A stretch of 50,674 bases of DNA, the filler included, from Catajapyx aquilonaris (lineage: Eukaryota): the NCBI GenBank assembly GCA_000934665.2. It is 2 parts of 2 records of this genome, joined end to end, with 100 filler letters (N's around TTAATTAATTAA, not from the genome) between each part and the next. Parts side by side here need not be neighbours in the genome. Positions count along the whole stretch, not along the records: positions 1 to 25,287 come from JYFJ02005397.1; 1 more part is not named here. The stretch is one strand, 5' to 3'. A program made the translations under genes and the position numbers. Under the pieces are notes generated by a model, which had not been told where the DNA came from, searched no databases, and saw only the letters and a program-made list of their open reading frames with translations. Positions 1,911 through 27,117 of this stretch are shown piece after piece (the first letter of the stretch is position 1; the number at the start of each line of letters is the position of its first letter).

Positions 1911-3738
1911 ATGAAGTCTCGGTGCTTGTTAGTCATCTCACTTCTAGTAATCGGATGCATCGTCTCTACTCAAGGTATGTGTATTTCGATTGTCCTGTAT
2001 GTCCAAATGAGCTCTCGAAGAGATGTCCTCTTTTTAGACTCATGTATACATGAGCAAGTCATATCGTGTATTCCAGGAACAGCGGTGGAGTATGCTGGTG
2101 ACCAATATGTTTACGAAGGCAACTCAGTCACTATCGAGTGTGCGTTGAAGGGACAAGAACCCATCGTGTGGTCCAGAAATGGGTTGAGACTCACTGGATC
2201 ATACCGTATCAACACTAATGACTTAAACACAGGGTTCAGGCAATCTAAACTGAGCTTGACGGATGTCACACCGGAACAGACTGGACTTTACAAGTGCAAT
2301 CCCTCTTCCAACAACGTGTTTTCTCTCCGAGTCATCAATGGTGAGCTGTACCAGACACATAATAAGGCGGCAGGGCTTGTCCGCAAGCCCTGCCGCCTAT
2401 TGTACTGTGACCGCCACGTTCCGATTGGTCCCCGCCTATTGTTACCTCGAAGCTTCCGATTGGCCTCCGTTCAGCGCATGCGCAATGGGTGGTGGAACTC
2501 CTCAGTTGCATGTTGGAGGGCGAGGAGTCAACATCGCCGCTCCCGTAATTCGAACGTGACCCCGACCCCTCCCCGCTGCTCCAACGACCTACCCTGTCCC
2601 CTCAGCTCTACCACCCATTGCGCATGCGTGTCAACACTGGCATTACTGCTAGTTAGAAGTGGGACGAAAATTCAACCCAATATCAATATCAATGTCTCGC
2701 CCGTGGTCTCGCCAACCAATATACCCGACTTTTTCTAGAAGGCAAATTAAAAATCTATGGTAAATTTTATTATTTTGATAGACCAATGATTAACAACCAG
2801 GTCTACACCGCAGGTGGCAGACCTAGAAAAAAGCGAGCGAATCGAGTGGTTTTCTAGGCCTGCGCCTTGGGAAAATGTGAGCGAAGCGAGGGTTTTTCTA
2901 GTACGTATATTATGATTTCACCTGCTTCTAACATTGCATTTCAGTTGGTGAAATTACCTACGAAGGACCCAACGCTGTCCGTGAAGGTGATATCACCTAT
3001 ATCTATTGCTATCTGGCCAGACAACCACAGTGGACCAAGGATGGCGTTACACACTATCCATCATTTAAAGGGACCACCACAAAGCTAGGAGGAGGAATCC
3101 TGGCCCATGTTAAGATTTTCGGGGTGCGTGCCAAAGATGCCGGTGTGTACAGGTGTATGAATTCTCCAAAGGCGCACCAACTACTTGTCCTCAATGGTGA
3201 GTCTTATTCCTCTCATTTATAAGTAGGAAAACTATGTCCTCTGTTCTCCAGCAAATGCAGCAATAGCCAACTACACGAATGAAGTACAGCTGGTTCCAGA
3301 CGAGGAACTGTTCTTGCCATGCCAATCAAGCATTTACGAAGAGATAACAGCATGGTGAGTTATCTGCTTCTAAGCGATGAACCTGTGACCTGTTAATGAC
3401 CCCTGCAGGTACATCAATGGCCAGAAGATCTCTGACAACAAGGACGGGTACGTCATTACCCCTGAGCAGAATGGTCTGCTGGTGCATAAGGCTGAATGCA
3501 AACACGTGGGGACATACACGTGTACTGCCAAGAACACACTCGTGCCTGAGCTGCCTCCAACAATGAACAAGACCATGGAAGTCCTGCGTAAGTCATTTGG
3601 AAATAAAGCTGATTCATATTGTGACAACATCTAATTACAGCCTCTGCTACATGTGGATCATGCTCCATACACTTCACCACAACATCACTTTTGCTCCTGG
3701 TTGTGGGCTGGGTTGGGAAGATGTTGCTGGATATGTAG
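1911..3738 (+). CDS. GPI-anchored 3-Ig-domain cell-surface protein, paralogue 2 (complete)
   Basis: Exons 1911-1974 (signal peptide MKSRCLLVISLLVIGCIVSTQG), 2077-2340 (Ig1), 2945-3196 (Ig2), 3252-3354 and 3409-3587 (Ig3), 3641-3738 (GPI-signal-like tail). All junctions are GT-AG and in phase. Exon sizes 252, 103 and 98 nt match paralogue 1. Confidence 0.9.
2361..2901 (+). mobile_element. Non-autonomous Helitron/Helentron-like insertion in an intron
   Basis: About 540 bp absent from the matching 58-nt intron of paralogue 1. 5' hairpin aggcggcagggcttg-tccg-caagccctgccgcct. 3' end gagcgaagcgagggtttttCTAG followed by T. No target-site duplication seen. A related fragment lies at 25088-25287. Confidence 0.65.
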
Positions 3739-3756
3739 AGCAGAAGAAGAAAGCAT

Positions 3757-3931
3757 ATATCTGCCGTCCCAAGGTGAAAGACCCTAACTTCAAAACTAGT
3801 AAGGGTGAAGGTCCCGTGCATGCCCTGCACTAATCCCCTCTGAGTCAGGGGGGATTGGTGCAGAGTGTGCATGCGACTTTCACCCTTACTAGTTTTGAAG
3901 ATAGGATGTTTCTCCTTGGGACGGCAGATAT
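3757..3931. repeat. ~175-bp palindrome (foldback MITE-like) in the 3'UTR of Ig paralogue 2
   Basis: Termini atatctgccgtcccaagg ... ccttgggacggcagatat. The arms pair along their whole length around a centre at ~3844. Confidence 0.9.
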
Positions 3932-4319
3932 GAGGAAGGAAAAATTACTCGGAGATCATACTCATGTTCTGTATCACCTTATAAGTGTTCATCATATTTG
4001 TTGCTGTACAATAGAAACGGAGATGACCAGCGGAGAGGGACTTAAGGACCTTTCTCAGCCAATTTGTGCCAATGACTTAAAGATGCAAACTTAATATTCT
4101 AACATGCAGGATGTTTCATAATGACAAACATTTAGGTTAACTCATGAGGATCACTCCAAACAGAAATGTGATTTGGTTGATATTTTTGATCATCCTTATT
4201 ATGATGTCTATATTTTTTATGTGACTCTAGTGTTTTCAACTAATAATAACTCCATCTATCCAGCTAAGCATCGTTTTACTGATTGACACTTATTGTTAGC
4301 ACATACTTGTACATTCCCA

Positions 4320-8476: not shown

Positions 8477-9533
8477 ATGGAGAACCTCGAACCTTCATCC
8501 CGTCGGTCGTCGCAGTCGACCCAGACGTCCTTGTCGTCCCTCTTCCGCCAGTGGCAGTGGCCGTGGACGAGACTGGCCAGTTTGACCCCTCTGGACAGGC
8601 TGTCCATCGTGTCCACCCTCTTCGCAGTGGCCTCCTTCGCGCACCTGGCCACGGACATCATCTTCCTTCTGATCGGACGACTTCCATCCCAGTTCCTCAT
8701 CAAAACCACGCATATAGTTATTGTAAGGTCATCACCAACAGGGTTCACACGGGAGACGTTACGGGGCTGGCGTTACGGTCGTGACGGTGCGTTCAGCCAA
8801 TCCCCTGCGCTTTCCAAGCACTCCAACCAATGGGGAGCGCCGGATGGACATGCCAATGAGGAGCAAGCTCCCCCCATTGGCTGGAGTGCTTGGAAAGCGC
8901 AGGGGATTGGCCGAAAATAGTGAGGGACTGTCCCTATTGGCTAAAAGGCTGCTCTGATCGTGTGTTTGTCCAGGTAAATGTGTTCACAACAATGTCCCGT
9001 CTCCTGGACCGCACCGTCAGCTCCTGAACATGTCCCTTATGAACCCAGGTTTAAGGACATCCACTTTGCAGGGTCTGCACATAATGATGATTTTCATCAG
9101 TACCGCGGCGTACGTCATGAAATGTGCAGTGCAGGACGCAGGACCTCTAGCCCAGACTGCGTTGGGTACCACTGGTCTGTATACACCTCTTTTCAGTATC
9201 TATGGGGCATCTATTCATAGTGTGTGGGTGTTTCTGATAACTGATCACAACTACAAACAAGTTTCCAGGCTAAGTTAGTAAATATTTGACCACTTGGGAG
9301 TTCAGCGAGGTGCTTATGCACTGAGGTTGACCACTGTTCCTCCATTTCCAGCGGTCCTTCTGGTGCTGTTGATTCTCCGCAATGCCATGGAGTATTACAT
9401 GCTGCCATACCGCCCCATGATATATGGGCTGAATTACCCCGAAGTAAAGAAGTGGGTACCGCCAGAGCAGCCAGACCCAGAGGACCACAGTTTAGATTGG
9501 TCTGCGGAAGAGAACCTGCACAGACCACCATGA
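8477..9533 (+). CDS. Uncharacterised small multi-pass (about 4 TM) membrane protein
   Basis: Exons 8477-8722, 9072-9273 and 9352-9533 join in phase (0, then 1) through GT-AG introns. Hydrophobic segments: LSIVSTLFAVASFAHLATDIIFLLI, GLHIMMIFISTAAYVM, LFSIYGASIHSVWVFLI, VLLVLLIL. The start codon is uncertain because the frame is open back to 8333. Confidence 0.6.
8792..8915. repeat. Intronic inverted repeat (~47-bp arms), probably part of a MITE starting at ~8741
   Basis: ttcagccaatcccctgcgctttccaagcactccaaccaatggggagc pairs with gctccccc(c)attggctggagtgcttggaaagcgcaggggattggccgaa. Confidence 0.8.
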
Positions 9534-10018
9534 GGTGGAGGAGCACCTTTACAGTCCTCTTACCTGGCAGGTCAGTCATAATCTTGGCAGGGTTGGTCCT
9601 CTGCTGCTGGGTTACCCCAGCCTCAGGGGCCTCCAAAGGTCCTCTGTGGTGCTACCAGTGCTGCGGAAATGGGTCCTCCGAATGCAATGACGTGAACTGG
9701 CCCTATGTCAAGTCAGCGACGAAACTGGCCTACAGGAGACCCTGCCCAGGAGCAATGGCCTTTTGCGCCAAGAAGGTCGTGTCAATCAATGGACAAGGTC
9801 AGCTGACCACCAGAGCCTGCCACTATGGGATCAGCCCCAGTGCCAACCAGGAAGGGGGGTGCACCAGGGTGCAGGCGTCCGGACAGGCGACGGTGGACAG
9901 CTGCATCTGTCCGGGTTACCTCTGCAACGGAGGGTCGTCCAGAAAGGCCCAATCAATAATTGCTGTTCCCACATTTACATTGCTTTACAGTTTATTGTTA
10001 GCTTGCATGGACCGGTAA
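9530..10018 (+). CDS. Ly6/uPAR three-finger protein (quiver/sleepless-like), GPI-anchored, intronless
   Basis: Signal peptide, LWCYQC start motif, Cys spacing ending CICPGYLCN, and a hydrophobic C-terminal tail. The ATG is in a ccaccATG context. AATAAA at 10017-10022. Confidence 0.85.
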   Translation: MRWRSTFTVLLPGRSVIILAGLVLCCWVTPASGASKGPLWCYQCCGNGSSECNDVNWPYVKSATKLAYRRPCPGAMAFCAKKVVSINGQGQLTTRACHYGISPSANQEGGCTRVQASGQATVDSCICPGYLCNGGSSRKAQSIIAVPTFTLLYSLLLACMDR

Positions 10019-10225
10019 TAAAAACTGGGTCATGCTGGTGCATAATTTGTTGCGAGTTACTACTGATGGATATAATAACTGTGAACAGAAATCAGCAGGA
10101 TACATATAATACTTCCAAAAGCCTTGCAAACCATTTCAATAATCTTTAATAGAACATGCACATATACACAGGAATGAAGTTGTTGTCATGGCTCTCTTTG
10201 ATTCGCTGCCTGGTCTGCCATGCAG

Positions 10226-11571
10226 TCACTTCTTCCGGAATTGCTTCATAAACAGGACCATTGCTGCAAAATTATGTAGAAGTTTATGAAGACAATGAAA
10301 ATTACTAATGACATGTCTGTTGGTCTGGTCATGACCATTTATGAGCTGCATAAGACTTCAAAATGTTAATTGCAATAAAATTTAGACTTAGAAGGCCTAT
10401 ATTATGTACCTTTTAGGCCATACTACATGTGACTCAAATTTAAAATAAGTTCAGGAAATCCTATTCTTGTAATGTACTGCTCCCTCATTGATACGCGAAC
10501 AGCATAAAGGAATACACACCTATAAAAGTGGAGGTGACGATGACAAGGACCATCCAGAGCCAGCACCTGCAGGCTCTCCTGTTGTGTTCCTGCAGCCTCT
10601 CACTCTCTACCTGCAGGCGCCCAGAATTGGCATCTGCAAGTGCACTACTCTGCTCCAGGACTTTGGTGTCACCCTGAACTATCCCCTGGGCCACCCTGCT
10701 TTGTTCTTTGAGATTGCGTGTCAAGCTCAGCATGTGGTCTGCTATCTTCTCCTGCATGGCTTGATGGTACCGCATCAGAGCATCCATGTCCTCCACGCCT
10801 CCGCTATTGCCATCTGGACGGCGTTGTCGCAACACCCCATCTTCTGCAGGAGGATCAGATGAAAATATATTACAACATGATCAAAACAAAATTTTAATGA
10901 TTGAGAGAAATATGATAACCATTCTCAGGGCCCAGTAGCTCCTCCCGCAAATTCTTCTCTGCTCTGACAGTAGTTCTGTGATGCAACTCTTTGGTCGCAG
11001 TCTCTGGGACAGCAGATGGAACGGGTGTCAGTATCTGGGCAGCTACCACTCTTTCAGCTGCTGTCGGCTATTGAAATAAGAAATATTGTCAAAATGAAGC
11101 CAGATCAATCTCCCATCACGAGGCTTTTCAACAGCACCAAGATTGGTGGATGGAAACTTACAAGTTTGGCCGTGGCAAGAATTCCTTTCAGAAATGTTAT
11201 TTTGCGGCCATATTCAATCACAGTGTCTCGCTTTGGTGGGCTGAAATGGTCAGCAATGTCAAATAGCAATGCAAAAGGTCACTACTACAATCTCGATGCT
11301 TACTTAGGACTCCTCTGAAGATCAGAAAGCATATCCTCCAGGGAAGTAACATACTGGAAATTAATGAACCTCCATGAGAATCCTAACTCCAAATTAAAAC
11401 CAGTACCCTTCTGACCTTGTCCAACCTCCACTCCTCCCCTTGGCTTGATTCCTTCTCGGCAGCCAGCTCCTCACACCGTGTCAGAAGGCGGCGGAAGTTG
11501 ACCTCCAACCGCGAGCGATGCTGCTGCTGCTGCGTTGGGGCCCTCCCTTCGCCTGAACTGTCGCTGTCCAT
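10226..11571 (-). CDS. USE1: Vesicle transport protein USE1 (ER SNARE)
   Basis: Exons 11571-11416, 11353-11304, 11240-11162, 11067-10920, 10843-10520, 10263-10226. Motifs SRLEVNFRRLLTRCE...EWRLDKYVTSLEDML and QEKIADHMLSLTRNLKEQS, with a C-terminal TM anchor ending ...FIAMVLFMKQFRKK*. Confidence 0.93.
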
Positions 11572-11859
11572 GGTCACCAGCTAGTCATCTCAGAAGTACT
11601 GAAAGAGGACCACGCACCATTACCATCATTCTGTACTAAAGTATGTCTACGGATACACCGACATGCTCTGCACCGTTGCATAATAACTGCATATCTAGTG
11701 GGCACCAACAGTACTCACCACTGCACTGGTGGCAATTCCAGCTTCAATATCCATCAGCATGACTCTCAAATAATTAAAAAATGCCAACCATACCAAATGG
11801 AATGGATCCAATCGCCATCATGCACTACCAGCATCACCAGTTGACACTATCCAGCGACG

Positions 11860-11945
11860 GAGGTGCGCGTGCGCCACCTGCCTCTCTAGGCTCTGATTGG
11901 TCCTTTTTTTCACTTCCCCTCCTCTGATTGGTCCTTTCCTCAGTT
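11860..11945. promoter_or_regulatory. Probable bidirectional promoter between USE1 and the GOLM-like gene
   Basis: The two ATGs are head-to-head ~500 bp apart. Two ctctgattggtcc (CCAAT box) copies at ~11891 and ~11922. Confidence 0.55.
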
Positions 11946-12067
11946 TCTCGTGAGCTGTCTGCTGTGAGGTCGGCCATGTTTGTTCTGTTGTTGTGAAGTG
12001 AAGGGTGTTGGTCACTGGGCTGTTGTTCGGTCGGGTTGTTCGAGAGAGACGGGAGCAGACGGGGCAG

Positions 12068-15000
12068 ATGGGTACGTGGGAGCTGCCGTCCTCATCAGCG
12101 ATGCGCGGCAACCACTACTACAGCGGGAGGTGCCCGCCCTTCCTGGTCGCAGGCTTGGTCCTGGCCTGCGTCTTGCTCCTCTACAACTACTGGTCGCTGT
12201 CCCTGCAGAACTATGAGCTGGTTAAGCAAGTGGAGCTGCTGCAAGAAGAGCTCAAGCTCGTGTAAGGGTGTCACGATGGGTACATCCTGAGGTCACTGTT
12301 TAACCACGGTTGCCTCTTTGACAGGTCGGGGAGGCAGGTGGAGTGCGAGAGGCAGCACGAGGCCCTGCATACCAGGCTGAGGGATGCGGAGGACGAGATG
12401 GGGAAGCTGCAGGTGATGGCCAACAAGAGGGACGAGGAGGTCAAGGAGGCCAGCAGGCAGGTGCAGAAGAAGGAGGGGGACGTCTCCTCCCTCAAGAACG
12501 ACCTAGAGAACGTCAGGCAGGAGGCGCAGAACTGCAGGGAGGAAATCGTAAGGGTTCTTGGTTTGTGCATGGTGGACATTTCGCAGGCTCATCCGGAGTG
12601 GTATTCCACACCTCCATTGCGTGGTTCTAAAGGCCGGTACCCACGTACAAGTTTTCTCGCATACGAGGAGCCAACTGCACATGCCCGGATACGAGGAATG
12701 AGGAAATGTTGAAAATTTTCAACTTTAATCCCCTTTTCGAGGGACAAGAGGGGTCCTGAGGCGACAAAGAGTCCATCTCGACGTACAAGATTTCTCGCGC
12801 AAGAGGACTGGCATGGGAGGAACTTGCACGTTGATACCGGCCTTAAGGCCCTTGCCACACTAGGTGGAATTTCCGTCGCAGTCCGCTCAAAAAAATCAAA
12901 CACATTGTAGTAAACAGGATTCCGTTAAACGGAAAAACCGTCGTGTGTGTCTCATCCCGACGGAATCCCGTTTACTACCCTGTGTTTTATTTTTTTGAGC
13001 GGACCGCGATGAAAATTCAGCCTAGTGTGGCAAGGGCCTAAGAATCTGTCTTAAGATTGGAATTCATTATTTACTAAATTCCTCGAGGTTTAGTGCAACA
13101 GCAGCACATTTTTAATGCATTCATTGCACAAGCCAGAGTGCTAGGAATTTTTAGTTCCACCGTTATCACAATATGTGCATGACGTCACTATGAACATCCT
13201 GGTGGCGACTGAAGATAGCAGAGCCTGGCTCCATTTTTATTTTATTGTTTGATAACTGAATGCCATTTGCCAATGCACTTAAAATGGCCTGCATATTTTT
13301 TCCCTCGTCAAGCCTGTGAATGTGTTTTCAAAGCATAACATATGCAAATCTAAAAATTATAATTGCAGAAAGGTTTTTTTCTTTTAATGTAATGTTGTAT
13401 TGCATTTCTCGGTAGGTCAATAGCCCTTAGAAAATGGTATTTCCCATTTGTCACTTTTGGCTCATTAATTTTCACACAGAAAAACATGGAGACAAGTGTG
13501 GCAACGAAGGACGAACTGATCGCCAAACTTCAGAGCAACACTGAGAAGTTCATGAAGGAGAAGCACAATTCTGTGAAAGAAGCCAAGGAAAAGGAGAAGC
13601 AGCTCTTGGCCGTCATTGAGCAGGTGAGGACTTATCCGAATTGGCCGCATTACGTAAACCGGTGTTTTACTCAGTTGTTGTCTTCCAATATTTGCAGCTG
13701 AAAGAAGATAAGCAGAATCAGGATTTGCAGAGTGGAAACCTTGGTGAGTTGAATGAGTCGCATGTTTTATTTTTTGGAGGAATGGTTCAAATGTAGGGAA
13801 CGGATCAGCATGAGTCTTTTGATTAGAGAAATCTTTGCTTGTATGCTTTTACAGTGATGAATAATTTTTCCAGACTTGTTACGTAGGGTTTCTGCCTGAA
13901 TTTTTCTAACCAGCTGCCATACATTTTTGCAATCCATTTTTTACTGGAGGTTTTAACAGTTGTTAACAGCATTTAATTGCTAACGTGCATTTGGTTTGCA
14001 CTGTTTTTGTCACTGGCCAGGTGCAATTTTTGGCGACAGTACTGCTATCTAAAGCAATTGAAATAGCATGCAATCTCTTGTCATTTTGCACGAAATTATC
14101 CTATTGTGTGGGGTACAATGGGTTGTATCAATCAGTCAGTAAGGCTTGCCAAGATGTAACAGGGCAAGTAAGATAAAATAACTTTTCAAGTAAGGTTTTA
14201 GCTAATAATCAAAGTTAGCCATCTGATTAGCTGATGGGAAGTCTGTTGATTACGTAATTAATCTTGCACTAAATACGTTCGCTTGTAACGCTGTATATAT
14301 GTCTCCTACTTGCTTCAAAGACAAAGTAACGGCCAATTTTCACATTGTCACTGAGGGTGTTTATGCCTTGAACGTAACAAGTATAAACTAGCCATGACGC
14401 AGCACTTGCGACAATAGCTACACTAGGCATAATCACTTGTACAAAATGCCACTCTAGCACTATGCAACTTAATGTTTGTGACATTAATTCTGTGTTTGTC
14501 CTACGCAGTTAAAATAAAAGGGAGAGTCAAGAGGTAAGTTGAATTTTTATTCACTCAGAATCAGTAGGCTAACTGCATGTGTGACGATATGTTGTACACA
14601 TACGATGTCTACCTGTTACGGTGCATATGCATTATTTACACAAGGACATTTGTCTCGCAATGCATGAATTGTCAGCACTCATTTATGGATACGCACCTCA
14701 CTATGCAACACCACTCAAAAGTGTTCTGTACCTTAAGTCTTCAGTGGCGAGCCGTGCTGTTACGAGAGAAATGTCTGCGGATAAATAATGGTTGTGTAAG
14801 TATGTGTATAGCAAATTTTTACACGTGCAGTGAAGGTACTGAGTGAAGAAAAAATTATACTTCGGTACTCTCCCTTTTCACTGTTAGACTGTAGATGTAA
14901 TTGGTCATGCACAGGTTTCCAACAAATACGTGACCTTGTTTTTTTTTACAATACCAGTATTAATGGACAGCAAAGGAGCCAAAAATTGCACACGGAGACC

Positions 15001-16824
15001 GTAATTCAAATGGTGTGAAACTGTACCGCAGCAGTTGCACATTTATTTATTTCTCACTCTGGACCCCTTAATTTTTCTAACTCTGCACTCGCCTGGCAAA
15101 CCCCAAACTTCTAGTCGCTAATGGTCAGGAGATGAACTCTCCCCTGGAGTCCCTGCTGCCTGTCTCCCCCATCCCCGGTAGGAGGGGCAGCTCCACTGGG
15201 AAAGTTCTCAAGCACGTGTACGTTCAGAGCAAAGGCCTGAAGGGCATGAAGTGGCACGAGGACTTGCCCATACTAGTCCTTGACCCCCCTGGCGTGCCCA
15301 GGCCACCTCCAAGGTTCAGTGTGGCAGACCTGGCAGGTGGGTCATCTACCCGTCTTTTTTTGGGCCGTGTTTTGATAGGTAACATTGCAATTGCTTGTGG
15401 CTTACGACCTTGGACGTTACGGACAAGAAGTGATTCGGTGCATAAGTTCTGTTAGGTTCTACAACTGTTACTGTTGCTAAAAAATATATCGCGGCCACTC
15501 GATTGCAATGTTACAGTGGGCTGGCTTGATATGGAAGCCCCGAAGGGCCTTACTGATTGTTTTGCGCATTTTGGCTGAATTTATATGCATAATGCATTGT
15601 AATTACTAATTAGAAATGATTTGGCAACTGCATCACAAAATATTTTTAAATCAACATGAGTTCTTAGGGGCTTCCGTAGACTGCGGACCTTGGAATGCTT
15701 CATTGGGAATTTAACATTGGGGATCCGAAGTAACAGTTAATAAAAATATTCTGCCGTGTATGGCAAAGTGGTGAAATATTCCAAGAAGTTCCCAAACTGC
15801 CATGAAATGTTTGTTTCGTCACTTCATTGCTGTGTCAAACTAAGGTTATTTTGCTGCCTGAAATCTGGACTCTTCTTGATCACTATGCAGCTAATGGTGG
15901 TTTGGAATTTATTATCTGGGTTGTTCGCCTTGTGGTTGAGAACCTGACACTTGTAGCCATACTCTTGCATGGCTGGGTCCTAATGGGCTGCCTGCTGTTA
16001 GACCTTATTCACACTGCACTAAACAGCGCATGAAGGATGCATGAACTGATGTGAATCTGGCCTAAGACGTAGGTTTACGCTGCTCTATCGCATGCTTTGC
16101 TCTTACGACTTTTCAACAGATTGAAGAACTTGTTTGCAAAAACTCACCGAGTCCATCAACTTTTTGAATGCAATATAAAGAGGAGGGATGGACTCGGAGG
16201 AGCATTTTGTCAAAAGAGAGCTCTTCAGGTGAAGGCTGTTGTGTCATGGCCTCATTTTCTTACTTGCGGTATCAGCAGGAAAGCAGGGTGGTGGCCCTGG
16301 CGACAAACCAGTAACAAGCGACCCCAAGGCCAAAGCCCAGCTGGACGCAGCCGAGGACAGGGAGAGGCAGCACAAGCTGGTTCTGGAGAGGCCGGGGAAG
16401 AAGGAGGAAGCAGCTCCAGGGGAGAAGAAGACAGAGAAAGACGCAGTGCTGGAGGTCCCCAAACAACAGAAAAGTGGGTGTTACATTTCGGATCAGCTAA
16501 TTTCCACTGTTGATGTGTTCCGTTTATCTAGCTCCAGATAACAACCTAGACACCATGGAAGATGACATTGATCCATCGAGGTTGGGTGAGGATGCAGACC
16601 AGAACGGGGATGGATCTTTGGACGAAATTCAAGGAGCAGGAGCTGCTGCGGGACAAGGGGCTGCAGGACCTGGGGCCGATCCAGGGGCAGGAGTGGTGCC
16701 TGCACCTGTCGAGGGAGCTGGAGTGGGGCCTGCCCCAGGAGTGCTCTCGGCAGCAGACAAGGACGCACTGGACGTGATGGCTCGGAATTTGGAGAACCAG
16801 CAGGAGCCCAACAATGAACCCTAA
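12068..16824 (+). CDS. GOLM1/2: Golgi membrane protein GOLM1/GOLM2(CASC4)-like type II membrane coiled-coil protein
   Basis: N-terminal GRCPPFLVAGLVLACVLLLYNYW signature followed by coiled coil and an acidic C-terminus. Exons 12068-12261, 12325-12547, 13480-13623, 13698-13743, 15115-15336, 16279-16473 and 16532-16824 join in phase. Confidence 0.8.
12632..12842. mobile_element. PIF/Harbinger-like MITE (older)
   Basis: Imperfect terminal inverted repeats ggccggtacccacgtacaagttttctcgcat / atgggaggaacttgcacgttgataccggcc in a TAA/TTA context. Absent from the duplicated intron at ~24855. Confidence 0.65.
12847..13038. mobile_element. PIF/Harbinger-like MITE
   Basis: Perfect 18-bp terminal inverted repeats ggcccttgccacactagg / cctagtgtggcaagggcc, with extended internal symmetry. 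TAA target-site duplication at 12844-12846 and 13039-13041. Confidence 0.9.
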
Positions 16825-18805
16825 GGCTTGGGGAGATGTAGTGGCACTGACTGGACCGTAGGTGTTGATTGTGACTGAGTGTAACCGCCAGTGACTTGCT
16901 ACTCTGGGGGTTCGATAATGGTGAAACACAAGATTGTTCCTGTCATCAATTTTTAGAAGTGATCAGAGCTTGGCTCGCAAGAGGCGGACGGAACTGATCG
17001 AGCGTTAGAACTATTTGGGCTGGAGGAGATTGACGCTGATGTTTTTTATATCATGCATTTCTTTGGACACTGTTATGAATTATTGACATTCTTTGACTTT
17101 CAGGTGCTATTGTCTTGATCAGCAGCGACAAATAAGTTTTACAGTGAGCCTCTCAATTGTGTATCTATTTGCTCAATGGCTAGATGGCAGTGTAATGGCC
17201 TTTTTACACGATTCCTCTGCTAGCAAATGAGCCTGTGGTGTTTCATGGACAGCATGCTGCATGGACGAGCTTCTGTTTTGCTAGCCGCGACCTCGTGCAA
17301 ACGGGCTTTGACCGCTTTCATGTGCCATTTGGTCGGATGGATATGAGTTAGCATGACCTTGCCATCCGGTGACTGGAAAGCCTGAAACATTTGCTCCCAT
17401 CATGAATCCGTGATGACGATGGGAACATATGTTCAGTAAGCGGAGGATACCAACAAGTTTAGCTGTGCTCTGCGATTGATTTTAGCGGGAGTTATTAGAT
17501 CATGTGATGGAATAGTGTAATATTGGTGCATGCACAGTAAAATTCCCGGTGTTTTAAAATTCTAGTGTGAATAGGGGAAAATTTGTGGGACTTTTTCATT
17601 AGACATGGTCGAGAGTAACTCCCACTAAAAGTAGTGTCGGAGCATGCCTAGCGTGATCCTTGTTCGTATCGTTTTATGAGACAGTACCTTGAAATTCCAC
17701 ATTATTATTATTAGACACATTGCTCATCTCAGGATTTAATCAGTTTAATTACTTGAGTGTTGCACACATTCGTGTCGGAATGTGGTTTTGGTAGGTGTTA
17801 GTTGCAGCACAAATGGCGTTTTGACCATTTTGTTTTGTACATGAATCTTGAATGTCATAAAAACCAGAGCAAAACTTGGCGATGTGGATGCACGGCACGC
17901 AGCTACTTTGCCGTCGCAGCTGCAGATTTAGCTTCGTTTCCGATGAGCGTTCCAGTAATGTCAATGGCAACTCCCGCTGACGGGGTTATTTAGGTAGCGA
18001 AGTTCGTGTCTCGTAGGTAACATGAACCTCCGACGATGTTCTTCCCCTTTGTTCCTATTCGCTGTACTTACGTTACTTTTTTTCGGGTCGCTTTGCAATA
18101 GACTGGGTATCATGAACGAATCTATATGTATATAAATGACGCTGTACCTATCATTGACCATTTTAGTGTTGGCGAAATAGTACAAGTCGGGTGTGGCAGT
18201 CGTCGTCATGCTTTTTAAAAGTAGCACCTTCCACGCATCGAGTGCGTTTTGCCGTGGCAATGTTTTCCAGCGATCGGAAGGTCGTGGTTTGTATGCTGTT
18301 TTTTTTATCAACGTGTGGAACAGTTTGAAGTGAAATAAAAATGTGACCTGTTGAATCCGTCTTTGGATTTACCGCATCCAGCATTTGCACCGTTGTCGTA
18401 CGTCGCCGTACTTATGAGCAGTTGTTGATTGTTTGCAAATATGGTAACAATGAGAGGGTCTAACCTGCTCAGTATAGCAGCAATTCGAAGGTACATTTTT
18501 ATTTAATTTTATTTAATTCAAATGTGTACTACTGATGATACCATCGATGCTGGTGCTATTCCCTATCTTCATCGGCATATTTCCGCCATGTTGGTAATTT
18601 TTTCAGAGTGAGCTACATTTTGGGCTAGTTTTCCCCGAAAATATTCTTTCCAATGGACCTCTTCAGCTGCAGAATTTAAGAGGAGGATCTACTGGCCACC
18701 TGAGGTCCGAAGTGGCAATATTACATCTGAAGTAAGTGGGGCTTGCCAAAGGGTTACAACGCTGTACAACTCCGCTCTTATTGTTCCCAGGCAGACCTTT
18801 ACCAA

Positions 18806-21485
18806 ATGGCAGACTCGATGGTTCCTGTCTGTAGCACCCAGGACTTCAATGCCCAGTGGGCGGAGATCACCCCTGAGTTCTTCGAGTGCGTCAAAGGTAA
18901 GACGACATGTCGTATGTCGCAAAAGGTTTGATCCCTCCGTTTCCTTACAGAAATGGAACTGGGTGAGCTCCTCCACGACAGCATGTTTGGATTGTTCGAG
19001 GCCATGTCGGCCATTGAGATGATGGACCCGAAGATGGATGCTGGGATGGTCTGCAACCGGGGGAAGAAGAGGGCCCTCACCTTCGACCAGGCGGTGAAGG
19101 TGGGTCAAAGGCGCAGGAGGCACCGGGCAGTATGTACCGTTCATATTATTACAGGAGGGCAAGTTAAAACTGGATAAGCTGACTCCGGCTGAGCAGATGG
19201 CAGTGATTGACACCACCTTCGCATGCCTGGTGACCTGGCTGGAAGGTCACTCCCTGGCTCAAACAGTATTCACCAACCTCTACCTCCACCGACCCCATGA
19301 AGTCAAAGACCACCTTGTAAATGCTTTCAGCATATGCATACTCAAGCTGATAGACACCATCAAGGAATATGTCAACAGGTCAGTTTTAATTGTTGTAAAA
19401 TTCCGGAAGTGTACGAGTTGGGGACATCCACAGGGCGTCCGTGTTCGAGGAAGAGGACTTCCAGCCAGTTGTGTATGGATTCAGACTGGCAGTGGAAATC
19501 AGCGACCAAAAGGCAGTTGCCATGTTGCGGGAGGTGGAAGATGAGCTGCAGCGGAAGTGTAGATCCACCAGGGCCAGACCAGGAGAGAAGGAAGGGGAGA
19601 GGGACCCAGCCCTGGAGCAGGCCCATAGGAGCGCTTCAGGCCTCCACGCTCGATTGAGGTTCCTCCGCCTGCTATACCAGGTCAGTCGCATCGTTGGCAC
19701 TGTTGGGCAATCCTTGACGTCATCTGTGTTTGCAGGCCCTGCTGTGCTTTGGCCGGCGCGACCCTTCAAGTCTGACCGAGTGCCAGCGTTTCTTGTCTGG
19801 CTGCAAAGAGGCCCTGGCAATGGTGGCAAAGGAAGGGGTCATGGAGGCCAGCTGTGGAGAGGATGGCTCGGAATCTGTCCTAGGCTTTGAACCAATGGTG
19901 AACCAGAGGCTGCTTCCCCCAACCTTTCCCAGGTACACTCGTCTCAAGTCCAGGAAGGAGGCTTTTCTTTACCTGGAGCAGCTGCTGGTCAGGCTGCAGC
20001 ATGCGTGTCGGGTGGCCAACTGCGCCTCATTTCACTCAGCCATGGTGAGACTGGCATTCACTGGATTTTAATAGCCTGAACTTGACGTATTTCTCACTTC
20101 CTGTGCAGGATTTCTTTCTGGAGTTTTCCCAGCAGTCCCCATGCGTCTTGTCCCGCTCAGTCCTGCAGCTGCTGTACCTTCCGCCATGCAACCGTGTCCT
20201 GGGCGCCAATCCCCTGACGGAAGTCCTGAAGGACTCGGCACGGTCCTTCATATGCCCCCCTGTACTGGCCTCCAAGTCGCCACTCATGTCCAACCCGCAG
20301 GCTCGGGAATACTTGGAGACGTTCATGAGCCACTGTGCCAGGCCGTTCGTGGCACTGCTGCAGATCTGCGGACACAACAGGGCTAGGCAGAGGGACAAGT
20401 TGGCTCACATTCTGGAGGAGTTTGCTAATCTTCAAGATGAGGTTAGCTCCATTAGGTTCTGGGAAGGCAGCGTCCACATGGCATCTGACACTTATACACC
20501 ACTTCTACTCTACAGGCTGAGCGGGTGGATGCCTACCTGCACAACCTAGGCATGAAGTCAGACTCCCCAAGGTCCCACTTGGCCTGCTTTGGCACCTGGA
20601 TCCTCTACCACACCCTTAGAGTGATGGTTCGTTACCTGCTGAGTGGGTTCGAACTGGAACTGTATTCCCCGCACGAATTTAGATATGTTTATTGGTACCT
20701 GTACGAGTTCCTGTATGGTTGGCTGGCATCTTCCTGCAGTAGGGCAGATGGCATTCTGGCAGAGCAGGAGGCACTGGCTGACATGGGAAGTGGAGGGGGT
20801 GGTGGGAGTGGAGGGGGCCGAAGCGGAGGAGGAAGAGGAGCCAAAGGTCGAGCCAAGGCCAGGAAGAAGAAGGGGGCCAGACCCATATCCAGGGACGTGG
20901 CGCTCTCACAGGCACTGCAAGCCTTCTCAGGTTGGTAATTGGACCCATGTATTGCATTAATACGTCTACACAGAACATCCCTTCTTAGGTGCTTACTACA
21001 AGGCGATGACAGCCTTGCATGTGGATGGGCGGATTCTTCGTCCAAACCCCGAGTTTGATAATGAGCAGGTGCGCTACGAGCACCGTTTCTCGCCATTCAG
21101 CTCCGTGCGGACTCCCCCACTGGTTCATTATTCACAGTACTTAGAAATGACCGCACTAGTCCAGGAGGGTGGCATCATGCCCACTGCTGCCTCTCTTTAT
21201 GTATCAGCATGCAGGCTGTTCCACCAAACGAGAACCCTGCTCGAAATGGTGCAGCCTCCAGACGATGAGGTCAGTCTCACAGTTGCCTCATTAACCTGCA
21301 ATTTCTTCCTGCATAAGTCGGATAATAACACGCTTTATCTGCAGGTTCACGCCCTTCTTAAGATCACCAAGACCAATTTTGTAGTGATGAAGCTTCTTGC
21401 TGGGGGACACAAGAAGGACCAGATCCTGCCACCAGAATTTGATTTCTCTCTACATTTGCACTTTCCCATTATTAAGCTTGTGTGA
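18806..21485 (+). CDS. NAA35: N-alpha-acetyltransferase 35, NatC auxiliary subunit (Mak10)
   Basis: Exons 18806-18896, 18951-19099, 19155-19378, 19434-19680, 19736-20044, 20109-20441, 20516-20930, 20989-21269, 21345-21485. Motifs [93 protein letters not shown]. Confidence 0.97.
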
Positions 21486-21803
21486 ATTTTTTGTACGTAA
21501 AAAAACAAGTGGTGAGCCGCAAGTGTTGTTATTCAGTTGGTTTTTCAACGAAATCTGTGTGTATGTCGAAAGTGCGCTGGATTAAAAATCTCCTGAGATA
21601 GTGTCAGTCATCATTTTCTATGTTCATGTTATGATCCGTTTAATTATAAATTGACACTACACGTCCGCACATGCTGGTCCGCATGTGTGGACGACAGTCG
21701 AGCAATCATAAATGGCACATGTAAGTTGCTAGATGACGAATGTTTGTGGAAAGGTGACCATGGTTGCAACAATTCTAATTTGTATACTGTATTCCCCATT
21801 ATC

Positions 21804-22736
21804 ATGTCCGGACAGCCAGGCAATGTTGGCTCAACATATCAGTTTGGATGCAAAGCCATCGCTACCGGTTCGACAGGCCAGTCTGTGAACCATCACGCAA
21901 TGCAGGTCAGGGGCGCATCTAGCCAAATTATATTTTGTAATTTGTATGTTGTTCATAATCGTGAGCTGTACTATTGAATTTACCATCAGGTCTATGGTGG
22001 CTATCAATTTGGTGCAACCCCCACATTTTTCAATGCTCTAAATACAACCCAATCAAAAATGCAAGTGGGTTTTCCCACTACCACAAACCAGTTTGGAGTC
22101 TCAGCTCGTAAGTCCGCAGCAGGCTTCCTTACGACGTTCAACTCTCCAAGTCGACGTGTTACTCTTACGGCAAAGGGTAGTAGCCTGATACAGAGTATAA
22201 TGGCCGAGTACAAATGCATCGCTGCCATGAAGAGGTACGAGACCATGAGCATGGAAGAACTGCGTGTGAAATATTACGCTGCCTTTCGCAAGGTGCTGCC
22301 AGCAGTTTGGTCCCATCCCAGTCACAACCAGACAGGCACTCCAGCACCCCCCAGCATGCCAGTCGTGCAAGTGACGCAGGAGGACAAGTCGCCTTTGGGC
22401 ACCGCCATCTCCCTCTTCGGCCCCTACGTTGCAGGGATAGCCCTTGGCACCAGAGTCCAGTTCAGACCAACCAATAATATAGACGTGGTGGAGAAGAACG
22501 GACAGACCAGCTACATACAGACTCTCCTACAGTGCATCACTACCATGCGAGAGTACGACGGAAAGAGCCTGGAGGAGCTGCGCATGGAGGACTACCATGC
22601 CAACTGCAATGGGAAGCACGACAACTCTAGAGAAGCACCATCCTTCCCGGCAAGTACTGGTGCGTTCCCAGCGACGCATGGCAGTGCAGACACTGCAGCA
22701 GCATCACGATGGCTCCAGTTGTGGGGCATGCCATAG
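21804..22736 (+). CDS. Truncated Nup98-derived protein with two GLEBS (Rae1/Gle2-binding) motifs, ~282 aa
   Basis: Exons 21804-21905 and 21990-22736 (phase 0). A few FG motifs, plus motifs YKCIAAMKRYETMSMEELRVKYY and VQFRPTNNIDVVEKNG...LQCITTMREYDGKSLEELRMEDYHAN. AATAAA at 22808. Confidence 0.75.
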
Positions 22737-23432
22737 GGCATATTCAAACATGACTTTTTAATTTTTGTATTGTTAATTCTTTTGCTTGGACCACCAGTGA
22801 ATACAAAAATAAAGGAGGCCAACTCTACAACAATGCTTGGGTGGAATTTTTGTTGTATGGTACTGCTGCTAGTACGACGAGAATTCCACCCCTTGTTTTT
22901 TCAACTGCTGGCATCAATACGCTGCATATGTGTCGCTATACAGGACGTGTCTTATCGGCATATGTCTTCGACGACCTGGAAAAGACGAGATTTTCAGCAA
23001 TATTTTTATTCACATTTTACTCCCTCCAGGAGGGCCACCCGTCCTTTCTGAAGATCAGCGTTGCCATTGCATGCTTATCGATAAAGCATGCAATGGCAAC
23101 GCTGATCTTCATCGCGGGGAATTCCCTATGCCCGTTTCGGTGGATCTTATCTTATCTACTCCTGCTCCGTCCGCTGTTGTCTGCCGGAATCCCTCCGGGC
23201 ACCCTGGCCTGGCAGCACACGCGGGACAGGAACACGCCGCAGGTACTACACTTGCCATAGAGCTTGCACTTGCCTTACATCTAGATGATCTATGAACCAG
23301 ATCTATCGGGGTCATGTGGCGCCTTATTTCAACTCATTGTGCAAACCATCCCCAAAAGTTACGTGCAACAACTTATGTAGAGGCTTGGAAGAGGTTGTAC
23401 TGTTACGTAATACCATATTTTCTTTCCTCAGC

Positions 23433-24769
23433 ATGTTTGGACAAAACATTACCTTTGGCACGCCAGGAACATCATTCAGCTTTGGACAGACCGCGTCTGC
23501 CAACAAGGCTCCTACATCCATCTTTGGCTCACAGTCTTTTAGCAACCAAACACCGTCCTTGTTTAGCATTGCAGGCACAGCCCCGACGGTGCCACTGTTT
23601 GGATCCACAGCCACTGGATTTGGCCAGGCAAATGTCCCTCGATTTAGGTTTGGGCCTACTGTCACCACTTTCACGGCATCGCCCAACATGTCCCCACAGG
23701 TCAGAGTACTTCCCATTTCTCAAGATTGTCAGGCCTTGCATGTTAATCATTTTGTGGATGTCATTCACCAGGTGTCTGGAGGCAACCTGTTTGGAGCATC
23801 GACCTCCGCAATTGGGCGGCAGACCAAGACTGTGTTTAGACGAGCTGCCCCAGGCACCAGAGGTTTTGGGACTGGCGTAGGGAACACAAGTGGCTTCTTT
23901 GGTGCCCAAAATGCAACCCAGTCGGTGGTAGGCCAACAGCAAGTGCAATCCACAGCGTCCCTCTTTGGGCAGCCATCTGTGGTGACTTCCCCTGGGACGA
24001 CCATCCTCAATGCTTTTGCAGTCAAATTCAATCCACCCACTGGAACAGATACCATGGTGGAAAATGGGCGGTTGCACAATATCAGCACCCGGCATCAGTG
24101 CATCACATGCATGAAGGAGTATTACACCAAGAGCCTGGAGGAGCTGCGGATGGAGGATTACCGTGCCTACTGCAAGGGTCAGCAGGTCCCAGGGCAGGCG
24201 GCCACCATATTCACTCCTGGTGCTGCCCAGGCTGGAGGGGGTTTGTTCGGCATTGGGGCTGTCCCTGGCCCCACCCCAGCCACTGTCAGTACTTCAGGCT
24301 TGTTTGGGGCACCACAGAACAAGTCCATGTTTGGCACTGACCAGACTGGGTTCAGAACAGGCTTTTTCAACAAGGCGCAGAACACTGGCACTGCGCCTGA
24401 GGGATTCTTTGGCTACTGGTCACTCTCCCTGCAGAACTACGAGCTGGTCAAGCAGGTGGAGCTGCTTCAAGAAGAGCTCAAGCTGGTGTAAGGACACAGA
24501 GAGGGCAAAAGGTTACTCAGGTCACTGAACCAAGGTTGCCTTTTGACAGGTCAGGGAGGCAGGTGGAGTGCAAGAGGCAGAACGAGGGCCTGCATACCAG
24601 GCTGAGGGATGTGGAGGACAAGATGGGGAAGCTGCAGGTGATGGCCAACAAGAGGGACGAGGAGGTGAAGGAGGCCAGCAGTCAGGTACAGAAGGAGGGG
24701 GACGTCTCCTCCCTCAAGAACGGCCTAGAGAACACCAGGCAGGAGGCACAGAACTGCAGGGAGGAAATC
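23433..24769 (+). CDS. Chimeric gene: Nup98 N-terminal FG repeats plus GLEBS fused in frame to a GOLM-like coiled coil
   Basis: MFGQ start at 23433. Exons 23433-23699, 23772-24487 (TAA at 24489-24491 if unspliced) and 24550-24769. Canonical GLEBS VKFNPPTGTDTMV...ISTRHQCITCMKEYYTKSLEELRMEDY. From 24414 the sequence matches GOLM 12188 onward (YWSLSLQNYELVKQVELLQEELKLV). Confidence 0.8.
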
Positions 24770-25087
24770 GTAAGGCTTCCTGGTTTGTGCATGGTGGAAA
24801 TTCCTGAGGTTCGTGATCAGCTGGTGTGGTATTCCAGACCTCCGTTGTGTGCTTCTGAGAAATGCACGCTTCTGTTCAAGTCCTAAGATTGGAATTCATT
24901 CATTACTAAATCGCTCAAGATTTAGTGCAACTACAGGGCATTTTTTAATCACTCATTGTATCGTACGAGCCGGAGTGCTATTAATTTTTAGTTCCATATC
25001 ACCATTATTACAATTTGATATGTCGCGCGTGAAGTCACTAGGAGCGTCCTGTTTTGTTGACAACTGAAAATAACACCCTGGCTCCAT
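24413..25087 (+). repeat. Segmental duplication of GOLM-like gene 12187-13234 (exon 1 3' part, intron 1, exon 2, part of intron 2)
   Basis: Colinear match of exons and introns, ending at cctggctccat in both copies. This copy lacks the two MITEs present in the parent. Confidence 0.92.
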
Positions 25088-25287
25088 GCTTGCGGACGGC
25101 CGCCGAGCCCTCTGATTGGTCCGCCCCCGTATTGTCGCCGCCACCTCCTCCCATTGGCCCCCGTCCATTGTTGCTGCGTCGTATCCATGACGCATTGTTA
25201 CCACGACGCCTCCGATTGGCCCCCGTTCCGAGCATGCGCAATGGGTGGGAGAACGCCTCAGTCGCTTGCTGGACGTCAACGAGGACG
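25088..25287 (+). mobile_element. Fragment of the same Helitron-like repeat family as 2361-2901, cut by the gap
   Basis: ccgattggcccccgttccgagcatgcgcaatgggtgggagaacgcctcagt matches ~2456-2506 (ccgattggcctccgttcagcgcatgcgcaatgggtggtggaactcctcagt). Confidence 0.7.
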
Positions 25288-25387
25288 NNNNNNNNNNNNN
25301 NNNNNNNNNNNNNNNNNNNNNNNNNNNNNNNTTAATTAATTAANNNNNNNNNNNNNNNNNNNNNNNNNNNNNNNNNNNNNNNNNNNN
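25288..25387. other. Assembly gap containing an artificial TTAATTAATTAA six-frame stop linker
   Basis: 100-nt block of Ns with a central ttaattaattaa. Confidence 0.95.
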
Positions 25388-25559: not shown

Positions 25560-27117
25560 ATGGACCCTGCCCTGGCCCCAAGTACCGAGAAGGTCAGAAA
25601 AAGTCCCACTGAAACACCACTTCGGACGTCCACCCCAACTGCCACCACTTCGTCGCGTAGTAAAGATCAGCCTCAAAAAAATCTAGTAACTGGTATAATT
25701 TATTTTTGCACTTAGTAATAGTTCTTTGTTGCTATTAATAATGGCTCTCTGCATCTTCATCAGAACCTTAGAAGATCGAATTAACCATATGGGCGATCGC
25801 ATTCAAAACCTAGGCTGGTGGCCTTTGGACTCTGAAGAGCGACGCAAGACCGAGGAGCGAAGGAAGCTGCTGGAGCATATTGAGGAGCTTAGGGTTCAAG
25901 TGAGAGCCAAGTGGAAAGCAGAGGACGAGAAGAATGCCAGAACTAAGAAGGCGGCTGAGAGGAAGCTGAGGGCCGATCAGAAGGACCTGCTGGACCCTAA
26001 GGTCAGGGACCACCTAAATTTGGATAACGTCCAGCTTCCGTCCTGGATTAAGTTGGATCACAGTGTGATTGTTGGAAAGCTGATGAGTGGCCTGAAGTTC
26101 ACCAGGATAAGTCCGACGATTAGGCGAAGACTGAAGGAAGTCATGCTGGGAGAATACTTCCAAGACCTCGTCCGGGGGTTCTTCTGGATGTACTACTTGA
26201 ATCGCGTCATACTGCGCAGGTCACGACAAGTCGTCACGTTGGAAAAGAGGATGCTCAGCTTCCTGGGAGAGAGATTCATGCGTTTCTCGCGGCAGATGAC
26301 GTTGCAGGTCAGCGTCATAAATATTATCGTTGAGAGTGTGGAATGTGTTGGTTGATGATGTGCGATTGTTGTGCAGGAAAGGGACGACCTGATGCTGCTT
26401 CTGTCCCAGTGCGTGTCCAAGGGTGTGTACATAAACTACACCCTTCTCTTTCCGCATAACCTGGGCATATTCGACATCAAATTCCGCAAGCACCTCCTGG
26501 ACATGGTCCAGACAGCCATGATGGGATTGGAGCCATCCGGGTTGGAGCACGAGCATTGGAACCTCCTGTCCTACCTGCCAAGGGAATGCCTGAAGGGAGT
26601 GGGCTTCCTGAGTGAGCATCCGAAGACCTTCAAACAGATGGAACAAAAGGTCCAGTCCGGACCGACTATTTCCATGGAGAGGGTCCCCGAGAAGGATCCC
26701 TGGGAGATGGACAAGTGGAAGAGCAGCGTCATGAAGTCCTCGGCAGGTCAGGACCCTCTGGAACGCGCCTACCTGTCGACCCATCTGGTGGTGAACCAGC
26801 CGGATCCCGGAAAAGTGACCCAGGAGGGCAAGGACCCAGTGTTCAGGATGGCCAGGATAAACGCCGGGGCCCCAACCCTTCTGCTGGACTGCCACATAAG
26901 GGACCTCGGGGTGTTCCTAGGGGTTTGGAAGAAGCATTCCTTGACTCACCCGATAGTGGAAAGGATGGAGGATGAGCCGGAAGACCTCGCGGACTTGGTG
27001 GTCAAGTGCGGAGAGCGGGTGAGGACGGTAGTGAAGGACCAGAAAGAGATGAAAGTTCTCGAGGCCAGCCTGGGCAAACGGCTGCGGAGGTGGAAGGCCG
27101 CCAGGACAGGCCAGTAA
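25560..27117 (+). CDS. FAM227-like protein (FWWh-domain-like)
   Basis: Exons ~25560-25692 (uncertain), ~25772-26307, 26377-27117. The pattern LVRGFFWMYYL...LSFLGERF...RDDLMLLLSQCVSKGVYINYTLLFP....FDIKFRKHLLDMV....GLEP resembles the FAM227 conserved domain. Confidence 0.6.

Follow-up and report, generated by a model that had tools for sequence, protein, structure and literature searches.

A Nup98–GOLM chimeric locus in the genome of Catajapyx aquilonaris

Chimeric genes that arise in evolution combine parts of unrelated genes, and jingwei and Sdic are examples in Drosophila. In the accessible parts of two reports, genes formed by partial duplication or exon shuffling are treated as a general class (PMC2211543, PMC3673630). 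A different kind of chimera is represented by the leukaemic NUP98 fusions (for example, NUP98-HOXA9 and NUP98-KDM5A), which are somatic translocations with breakpoints in introns. According to the available part of one study, NUP98 fusions undergo phase separation through their phenylalanine–glycine (FG) repeat region (PMC8983581). GOLM1 (GP73/GOLPH2) and GOLM2 (CASC4) are type II Golgi membrane proteins. For human GOLPH2, the accessible part of one report describes a coiled coil that suffices for dimerisation and a membrane domain and tail that set Golgi localisation (PMC3226628). Here we analysed a window of 50,674 nt, the whole stretch under study, from the genome of Catajapyx aquilonaris (GCA_000934665.2; positions 1–25,287 are from JYFJ02005397.1). 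At 23433–24769 on the plus strand we found a chimeric locus, in which an FG-repeat and GLEBS-containing front of the Nup98 type is joined in frame to a copy of a GOLM2-like gene located 12 kb upstream on the same strand. The anatomy of this chimera is real, and its status as a working gene is unproven.

Structure of the chimera

The open reading frame (ORF) at 23433–24487 runs for 351 residues with no stop codon. A Nup98_GLEBS domain (PF21240) is found at residues 205–243 (76.5 bits with a cutoff of 27, E 1.6e-21), and the GLEBS peptide of 3mmy_B aligns with the chimera at E 1.5e-19. Its FG region can be aligned to the GLEBS-flanking FG region of human Nup98, and the ORF is collinear with human Nup98 residues 90–274, GLEBS included. 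The spliced model (23433–23699, 23772–24487 and 24550–24769) is an open frame of 401 codons (1,203 nt) with 15 FG motifs in its 303 Nup98-type residues; the Pfam Nucleoporin_FG model scores 18.8 bits on the ORF, below its cutoff of 32.2. Exon 1 (23433–23699) starts with the ATG and comprises 89 codons of an FG-repeat N-terminus of the Nup98 type, ending at a donor (CAG|GTCAGA) like the validated donors of neighbouring genes. It is headed by a pyrimidine-rich tract on the same strand (23417–23431) that resembles 13 RNA-validated acceptors. Because this acceptor-like tract ends in CAG one base 5′ of the ATG, it suggests that the start-codon exon was copied along with the end of an intron in the 5′ untranslated region (UTR). 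Intron 1 (23700–23771, 72 nt, GT..AG) falls within the 55–256 nt length range of 13 RNA-validated introns, and is itself in frame and open, so that its retention would leave the ORF unbroken. The Nup98-derived part of exon 2 (23772–24412) encodes FG repeats, the GLEBS (~24045–24161) and further FG repeats.

Neither the autoproteolytic domain (PF04096) nor Nup96 (PF12110) is detected by Pfam in the chimera ORF; full-length Nup98 matches in the database carry both. Because both are absent, the locus is a Nup98-derived fragment, not a Nup98 orthologue. A tblastn search of the window with the chimera matched only the chimera locus and a neighbouring short Nup98-like gene (named gene A). The best protein match of near length has 57% identity over 31% of the query (48 matches among 4,195 candidates), and the best longer matches have 35–47% identity (594 matches). 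No protein of the same species is present among the database matches of the ORF.

Homology to the GOLM2-like parent begins at CTACTGG at 24413, and the two loci are unrelated 5′ of this point. The switch is in frame and inside exon 2. In a blastn comparison of the window with itself, 12187–12628 matches 24413–24856 (85.9% over 454 nt) and 13048–13234 matches 24880–25087 (72%). Of exon 2, the final 25 codons (24413–24487) are GOLM-derived and encode the juxtamembrane segment; their first two residues, YW, are those that close the parent membrane helix. Intron 2 (24488–24549, 62 nt, GT..AG) aligns with the parent intron at 12262–12324, with 7 mismatches and 13 gap columns. Exon 3 (24550–24769) contributes 73 codons of a GOLM-type coiled-coil helix and ends at a donor that is conserved (ATC|GTAAGG). 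AlphaFold2 models its residues 2–72 as one 71-residue helix (mean predicted local distance difference test, pLDDT, 93). The GOLM-derived C-terminus thus has 98 residues (304–401), namely the juxtamembrane segment and the first coiled-coil exon. One lost AAG codon is the sole indel in the GOLM-derived coding exons relative to the parent.

The parent has a hydrophobic stretch at residues 20–46, with 19-residue Kyte–Doolittle windows up to 2.02, and the junction falls at parent residue 41. No membrane helix is found in the chimera, where no 19-residue window exceeds 1.14. Lacking the anchor, the chimera is not a GOLM protein. Both of its introns keep consensus-like splice sites, which resemble those of the 13 RNA-validated introns in neighbouring genes. 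A retrocopy origin was rejected because introns are kept in both the Nup98-type and the GOLM halves.

The first two coding exons of the parent (12068–12261 and 12325–12547, plus strand) match spliced RNA contigs without mismatches, and the gene continues to ~18306. The intron between these exons is confirmed by the RNA joint 12261|12325, present in a contig of an RNA run (X5) with no mismatch. The N-terminal 64 residues of the parent gave 85 matches at E ≤ 0.001 (best 62% identity), all at the matches' own N-termini, and the closest are cockroach, stick-insect and termite proteins. Five of the ten clusters that were looked up are named GOLM2, GOLM2-like, GOLM1-like or Golgi membrane protein 1; the other five are a PPC89-domain protein (Timema), a hypothetical protein (Coptotermes), an unnamed protein (Meganyctiphanes), an uncharacterized protein (Babylonia) and an unnamed Logan protein. 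In the alignment, the parent has the conserved tail–helix–juxtamembrane pattern of the GOLM family, followed by a coiled coil. The initial annotation had proposed, at this locus, a Nup98-type front with many FG motifs and a GLEBS, a mid-exon in-frame switch to a GOLM-like copy at the end of the membrane helix with loss of the anchor, DNA-mediated copying with the GOLM introns retained, a 3-nt in-frame deletion as the only coding indel, and intact splice sites. Our analyses agree with this description in each respect, including the GOLM label. It does not mention the contig end and artificial spacer 0.5 kb past exon 3, the double-GLEBS gene nearby or a closer Nup98-type paralogue located elsewhere in the genome.

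We compared read contigs with positions 9000–25287 of the window. The DNA runs X1, X2 and X3 come from one sample in one study, possibly the sample behind the assembly; the stretch is contained in four DNA-type runs from a single sample, no RNA run was listed as containing it, and one further run carries the same species label. X5 is a single run and behaves as RNA, with at least 13 GT..AG or CT..AC joints and no cover of introns; its contigs splice out at least 13 introns of 55–256 nt in three genes neighbouring the chimera. In each of X1, X2 and X3, a contig of 439 nt (24212–24650) spans the junction free of mismatches and gaps. Because it carries both 201 nt of FG-type and 238 nt of GOLM-type sequence, the joint at 24413 is borne out by the reads. 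This excludes a scaffolding artefact, and the misassembly that the initial annotation had named as a possible refutation is not found there; an individual-specific rearrangement in this sample would be compatible with the same reads. Overall, the chimera is very probably a genuine DNA sequence that was made at the DNA level.

The read contigs break between 23639 and 24212, where variant contigs lie, so that it is the original assembly that links the start codon and the GLEBS to the joint. An assembly mosaic would explain these breaks if 23433–24412 had been stitched from at least two Nup98-type paralogues, with the junction real and the start codon, the GLEBS and the junction on separate molecules. 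At 23808–23861, the sole DNA contig listed is a paralogous variant in X1 with four substitutions and three small deletions, and at 24107–24171 X2 and X3 list only paralogue letters. However, X1 has a contig identical to the window at 24107–24171 (depth of the other version 0 of 25.4), and contigs at 22129–23639 and 24212–24650 equal the window with no mismatch in all three DNA runs. The junction contig also carries FG-type coding sequence of its own, and holes between read contigs prove nothing, and contigs drop variants. We regard a mosaic as highly improbable.

Nup98-type relatives and further GOLM copies

Gene A (21804–22736, plus strand) lies between the parent gene and the chimera. Pfam, PDB alignment and the gene model support two exons (21804–21905 and 21990–22733) with a stop codon at 22734–22736, and an AATAAA is present at 22808, 72 nt past the stop. 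The 282-residue product has two GLEBS motifs (two Pfam stretches, E 1.1e-25) and only four FG motifs. A scan of 25 short GLEBS proteins from the database, out of 48 matches, found a single motif in each and two in none. An ESM Atlas search with gene A gave no usable match. At the DNA level, gene A resembles the chimera only in the GLEBS region (80%). The intron site Q|V(S/Y)GG is common to gene A and chimera intron 1. This shared site marks chimera intron 1 as inherited and the two loci as DNA-level derivatives of a Nup98-type gene. A 282-codon frame that is open despite deep divergence argues that gene A is a maintained gene, and its product may be a dedicated Rae1/Gle2-binding protein. A gene reading through from gene A into the chimera was rejected, since candidate splices that would link gene A with the acceptor at 23431 do not keep the frame. 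The single-copy spacer between the two loci holds a perfect 28-nt inverted repeat with a 7-nt loop (23049–23111).

Another Nup98-type relative is visible in the RNA run. One X5 contig of 438 nt covers 24075–24394 with 21 differences (~93% identity) and then continues for 117 nt that are unlike the window. RNA contigs of the neighbouring genes show no differences over several kb, and the variant letters of the X5 contig are also found in X2 and X3 DNA contigs at single-copy depth, while X1 holds the window version. Because the neighbouring genes show no differences and both versions are present in the DNA runs, this contig represents an expressed paralogue, not an allele. The first 30 letters of its loose end encode an in-frame four-codon insertion and then GFFG, so the paralogue continues as FG repeats at least to the position of the joint. 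These 30 of the 117 loose-end letters give a weak hint that the paralogue is not itself chimeric.

On the GOLM side, exon 3 is followed by a copy of parent intron 2 (24770–25087, plus strand; equivalent to 12548–12628 and 13048–13234). If exon 3 were not spliced, the frame would read 39 codons further to a stop at 24884–24886. No AATAAA or ATTAAA is present in 24761–25290. Homology to the parent ends at 25087, exactly where a high-copy repeat begins at the contig end (25087–25287; DNA-run depth 5,500–10,000; loose ends at 25086, 25245 and 25286). An artificial spacer follows (25288–25387), composed of 44 N, TTAATTAATTAA and 44 N, which is of the six-frame-stop type used to string contigs. The sequence beyond 25387 is another contig, and its adjacency in the genome is not implied. 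FWWh-domain ORFs at 25699–27117 need not neighbour the chimera because the spacer is artificial. The parent has a high-copy repeat of its own (12630–12929; DNA depth in the thousands; inverted joint 12690|12753), which is absent from the GOLM copy. The short high-copy repeats at 12630–12929 and 25087–25245 are probably small transposons.

The 3′ part of the putative chimera gene lies beyond the contig end. DNA contigs of single-copy depth with 8–10% differences map on the parent at 13769–13886 and 16701–16936, and a DNA joint (13980|16150) that skips 2,169 nt is found in X1, X2 and X3. Because of these divergent contigs and this joint, a further stretch of GOLM2-like copy exists that is unassembled in the window. 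The simplest reading is that it continues the chimera past the contig end; alternatively, it belongs to a third GOLM copy. If the former is true, the chimera would be the 5′ part of a longer gene, with further GOLM-type exons equivalent to parent 13.4–16.8 kb, and the product would hold nearly the whole GOLM luminal domain rather than 98 residues of it. This refines the view of the chimera as a gene and does not compete with it. The homology that stops at the repeat, the contig end at 25287 just before the artificial spacer, and the last exon of the extra fragment (four synonymous and two replacement differences among those listed) are all in line with a longer gene. On the other hand, the extra fragments have no physical link to the chimera, a 1-nt deletion near the end of the last exon ends the frame 16 codons early (80 codons vs 96), and an unbroken contig (17063–22158) suggests that the copy stops just past the stop codon, without the parent 3′ UTR. 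We place the longer gene only slightly short of an even chance.

Age, constraint and expression

Parent and copy differ at 20 of 295 positions in exons (6.8%) and at 47 of 321 aligned positions in introns (14.6%). For the GOLM-derived exons, the nonsynonymous divergence (dN) from the parent is 0.040 and the synonymous divergence (dS) is 0.206, with a ratio of 0.19 (pairwise, parent branch included). The initial annotation had called the fusion young, and this part of it does not hold: with an intron divergence of 14.6% and a dS of 0.21, the event is millions of generations old, not recent.

We give an even chance to the chimera being, now or until recently, a maintained lineage-specific protein-coding gene. 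Eleven of the 20 changes in the GOLM-derived exons are synonymous and nine are replacements, and the first 25 codons contain seven synonymous changes and no replacement. If all 20 changes were neutral, the probability of nine or fewer replacements would be 0.0004–0.01; with the intron rate as the neutral rate, ~16 replacements are expected versus nine observed (p ~0.04, an estimate). One in-frame indel is found in 295 exon nt versus 46 gap columns (~19 events by count) in 331 intron nt, a contrast that assumes equal indel rates in both. Because of the dN/dS ratio of 0.19, the absence of frameshifts and this indel contrast, the GOLM-derived exons are suggested to be constrained. In the Nup98-derived part, the frame is preserved by the indels listed against the paralogues, one of 12 nt that was read from the loose end and others of 3 nt and 1+2 nt; a 2-nt insertion in a contig of depth 3.3 is the exception. 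The deeply diverged yet open frame of gene A next door indicates that the locus holds a maintained short Nup98-derived gene, which we counted in favour of the chimera as a gene.

Several observations weigh against a maintained gene. The fair null for the GOLM exons is a constrained parent with a neutral copy, under which ~60% replacements are expected; nine of 20 are observed (11 of 26 with the six listed differences of the extra last-exon fragment added), and the resulting p of ~0.05–0.15 (an estimate) is marginal. Insect and mollusc GOLM proteins, with 13–30% identity in this exon, are too distant to polarise the differences between parent and copy. In the Nup98-type half, 12 of the 21 differences from the expressed paralogue are listed, and they affect 11 codons with four synonymous and seven replacement changes; all four differences listed for the X1 variant at 23808–23861 are replacements, with no synonymous change. 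The GLEBS sequence ANRKG, found in both the expressed paralogue and human Nup98, is AYCKG in the chimera (N to Y and R to C), and the X1 variant has FG where the chimera has IG. The Nup98-derived part of the chimera looks relaxed. The frame could also stay open through gene conversion by the expressed paralogue, with no selection acting on the chimera. A search of the contig gave neither an upstream nor a downstream exon, and neither a promoter nor a poly(A) signal; the 1-nt deletion mentioned above would add to these points if the extra fragment belongs to the chimera. Finally, no transcript of the chimera was seen in the one RNA run, and its protein product is putative.

X5 has no contig on 24395–24746, although a lack of cover in this single RNA run carries no weight. 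Its bin depth of 1.51 at the chimera is fully explained by the paralogue contig, and there is next to nothing on gene A. If the chimera is a gene, its expression would probably be narrow.

The points against a maintained gene can also be read as signs of a non-functional relic, that is, a real DNA chimera which was dead on arrival or is decaying, and is untranscribed. Its frame would be open by chance, through a partly younger age, or by gene conversion from a functional Nup98-type paralogue, and the low dN/dS of the GOLM exons would reflect constraint on the parent, or else date back to a period in which the GOLM copy was a separate gene. An open frame in the GOLM exons means little, as the probability of no stop after 20 random changes is 0.36–0.39. 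The exon divergence is near half of the intron divergence, as a neutral copy of a constrained parent predicts. The replacement-rich differences from the expressed paralogue, which cost the chimera a canonical FG as well as the N and R in the ANRKG of the GLEBS, the frameshifting deletion in another GOLM-copy fragment and the contig without a 5′ exon, promoter or 3′ end point in the same direction. However, the replacement-free first 25 GOLM codons, the single in-frame exon indel against the many intron events, and the consensus-like splice sites of both introns speak against decay. Moreover, stops and frameshifts are to be expected at this divergence; if the GOLM copy and the entire ORF share one age, the probability that 1,203 nt stay open is ~0.01 or less (an estimate from the stop rate per change and the density of indels). 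We consider a relic quite possible, with somewhat less than an even chance.

As to the origin of the chimera, a partial Nup98-type copy was joined in frame, within an exon, to a partial same-strand duplicate of the GOLM2-like gene. The Nup98-type copy comprises the start-codon exon, its intron of 72 nt and 641 nt of the exon that follows, and encodes 15 FG motifs and a single GLEBS. Because the joint at 24413 has at most one shared base and no transposon, we infer non-homologous joining of the two duplicates. In a maintained gene, selection would then have kept the reading frame. The product would begin with ~300 residues of FG repeats that include the GLEBS and end with 98 or more residues of the GOLM juxtamembrane segment and coiled coil. 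It would be soluble, with neither a signal nor an anchor, and would lack both Nup96 and the autoproteolytic pore-binding domain. Cohesive FG repeats, a predicted Rae1/Gle2-binding motif and a dimerising coiled coil would thus be combined in one protein. Rae1 binding, oligomerisation and condensate formation are predictions from sequence, and self-association of the coiled coil is suggested by analogy with human GOLPH2.

A wider proposal is that the chimera and gene A are functional members of a family of short Nup98 derivatives that is specific to this lineage and detached from the pore. As a germline counterpart of a NUP98 oncofusion, the chimera would be soluble, dimerised by its coiled coil, form FG condensates and bind or titrate Rae1/Gle2; gene A would be a pure Rae1 trap or scaffold. 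We consider this family unlikely. If it is true, its roles could be in germline-specific mRNA export, mitotic control or genetic conflict over nuclear transport.

The surroundings of the parent gene were also annotated. NAA35 (MAK10) at 18.6–21.5 kb directly follows the GOLM2-like gene (12068–18306), and a NAA35 exon has at best 61% identity to insect proteins such as those of Hetaerina and Cloeon (269 matches). Together with the insect matches of the parent N-terminus, this points to an arthropod source, probably close to the hexapods. GOLM1 and MAK10 are presumably adjacent in human. A human GOLM1-MAK10 read-through RNA is reported in the accessible part of one study (PMC3875775), and for this reason the GOLM2-like/NAA35 pair is suggested to be an old neighbourhood shared with vertebrates. 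Upstream of the parent, there are a USE1 gene on the minus strand (10264–11718) with six RNA-validated introns and a Quiver/Ly6-type ORF (PF17064) at 9290–10018. A direct repeat of ~1.3 kb with 84% identity (97–1604 vs 2182–4216) contains an internal inverted piece (1120–1263 vs 3926–3783). Rfam gave no match in the window.

Comparison with NUP98 fusions and chimeric genes

The closest likeness in architecture is to the leukaemic NUP98 fusions. Like NUP98-HOXA9 and NUP98-KDM5A, the chimera keeps an N-terminal FG/GLEBS part, loses the autoproteolytic domain and Nup96, and has an in-frame join. Unlike these somatic fusions with intronic breakpoints, it is in the germline genome and its joint is inside an exon. 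It keeps ~303 Nup98-type residues with 15 FG motifs, and the Nup98 part of the oncofusions is longer. The partner also differs, being a Golgi-lumen coiled coil in the chimera and a chromatin or DNA-binding domain in the oncofusions considered here, and the chimera is known from DNA alone.

Compared with Nup98 and Nup98-Nup96 themselves, the chimera has GLFG-type FG repeats and the collinearity with human residues 90–274 described above, but it lacks the rest of the FG domain, PF04096 and PF12110, and has 35–47% identity over most of its length. Its C-terminal 98 residues derive from a gene of the GOLM1/GOLM2 kind. In contrast to GOLM1 and GOLM2, the chimera has no cytoplasmic tail and no membrane helix, and because of this its coiled coil would sit in the cytosol or nucleus.

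As in other evolutionary chimeric genes, partially duplicated stretches from two unrelated genes, of which one lies close by, make up a new ORF with inherited introns. The locus differs in its parents: the pairing of a nucleoporin with a Golgi membrane protein did not turn up in our searches. Among the matches listed, a GOLM-type tail is present in none of 168 Nup98-type proteins, and a Nup98-type front in none of 93 GOLM-type proteins. In the parts of the literature that our search covered, no natural germline Nup98 chimera was found. On the other hand, a 550-residue predicted protein from public assemblies (P0041; 20 member sequences) has a Nup98 GLEBS together with a B-box zinc finger. This may be another natural Nup98-front chimera, in which case such chimeras are not unique, or a mis-joined gene model.

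If the chimera turns out to be a relic, segmental duplication will have produced it as an ordinary side effect, and its main value is that of a dated, mid-exon, in-frame non-homologous joining between neighbouring genes. If it is expressed, evolution built and kept the architecture of NUP98 leukaemia, with an FG/GLEBS front, no pore anchor and a self-associating partner, and the locus would offer a natural, non-pathological system for studying effects on Rae1, mRNA export and condensate formation. Together with gene A, an expressed chimera would also mark the Nup98 N-terminus as a reusable evolutionary module. In architecture the chimera resembles a NUP98 oncofusion, and it arose as other evolutionary chimeric genes are known to do.

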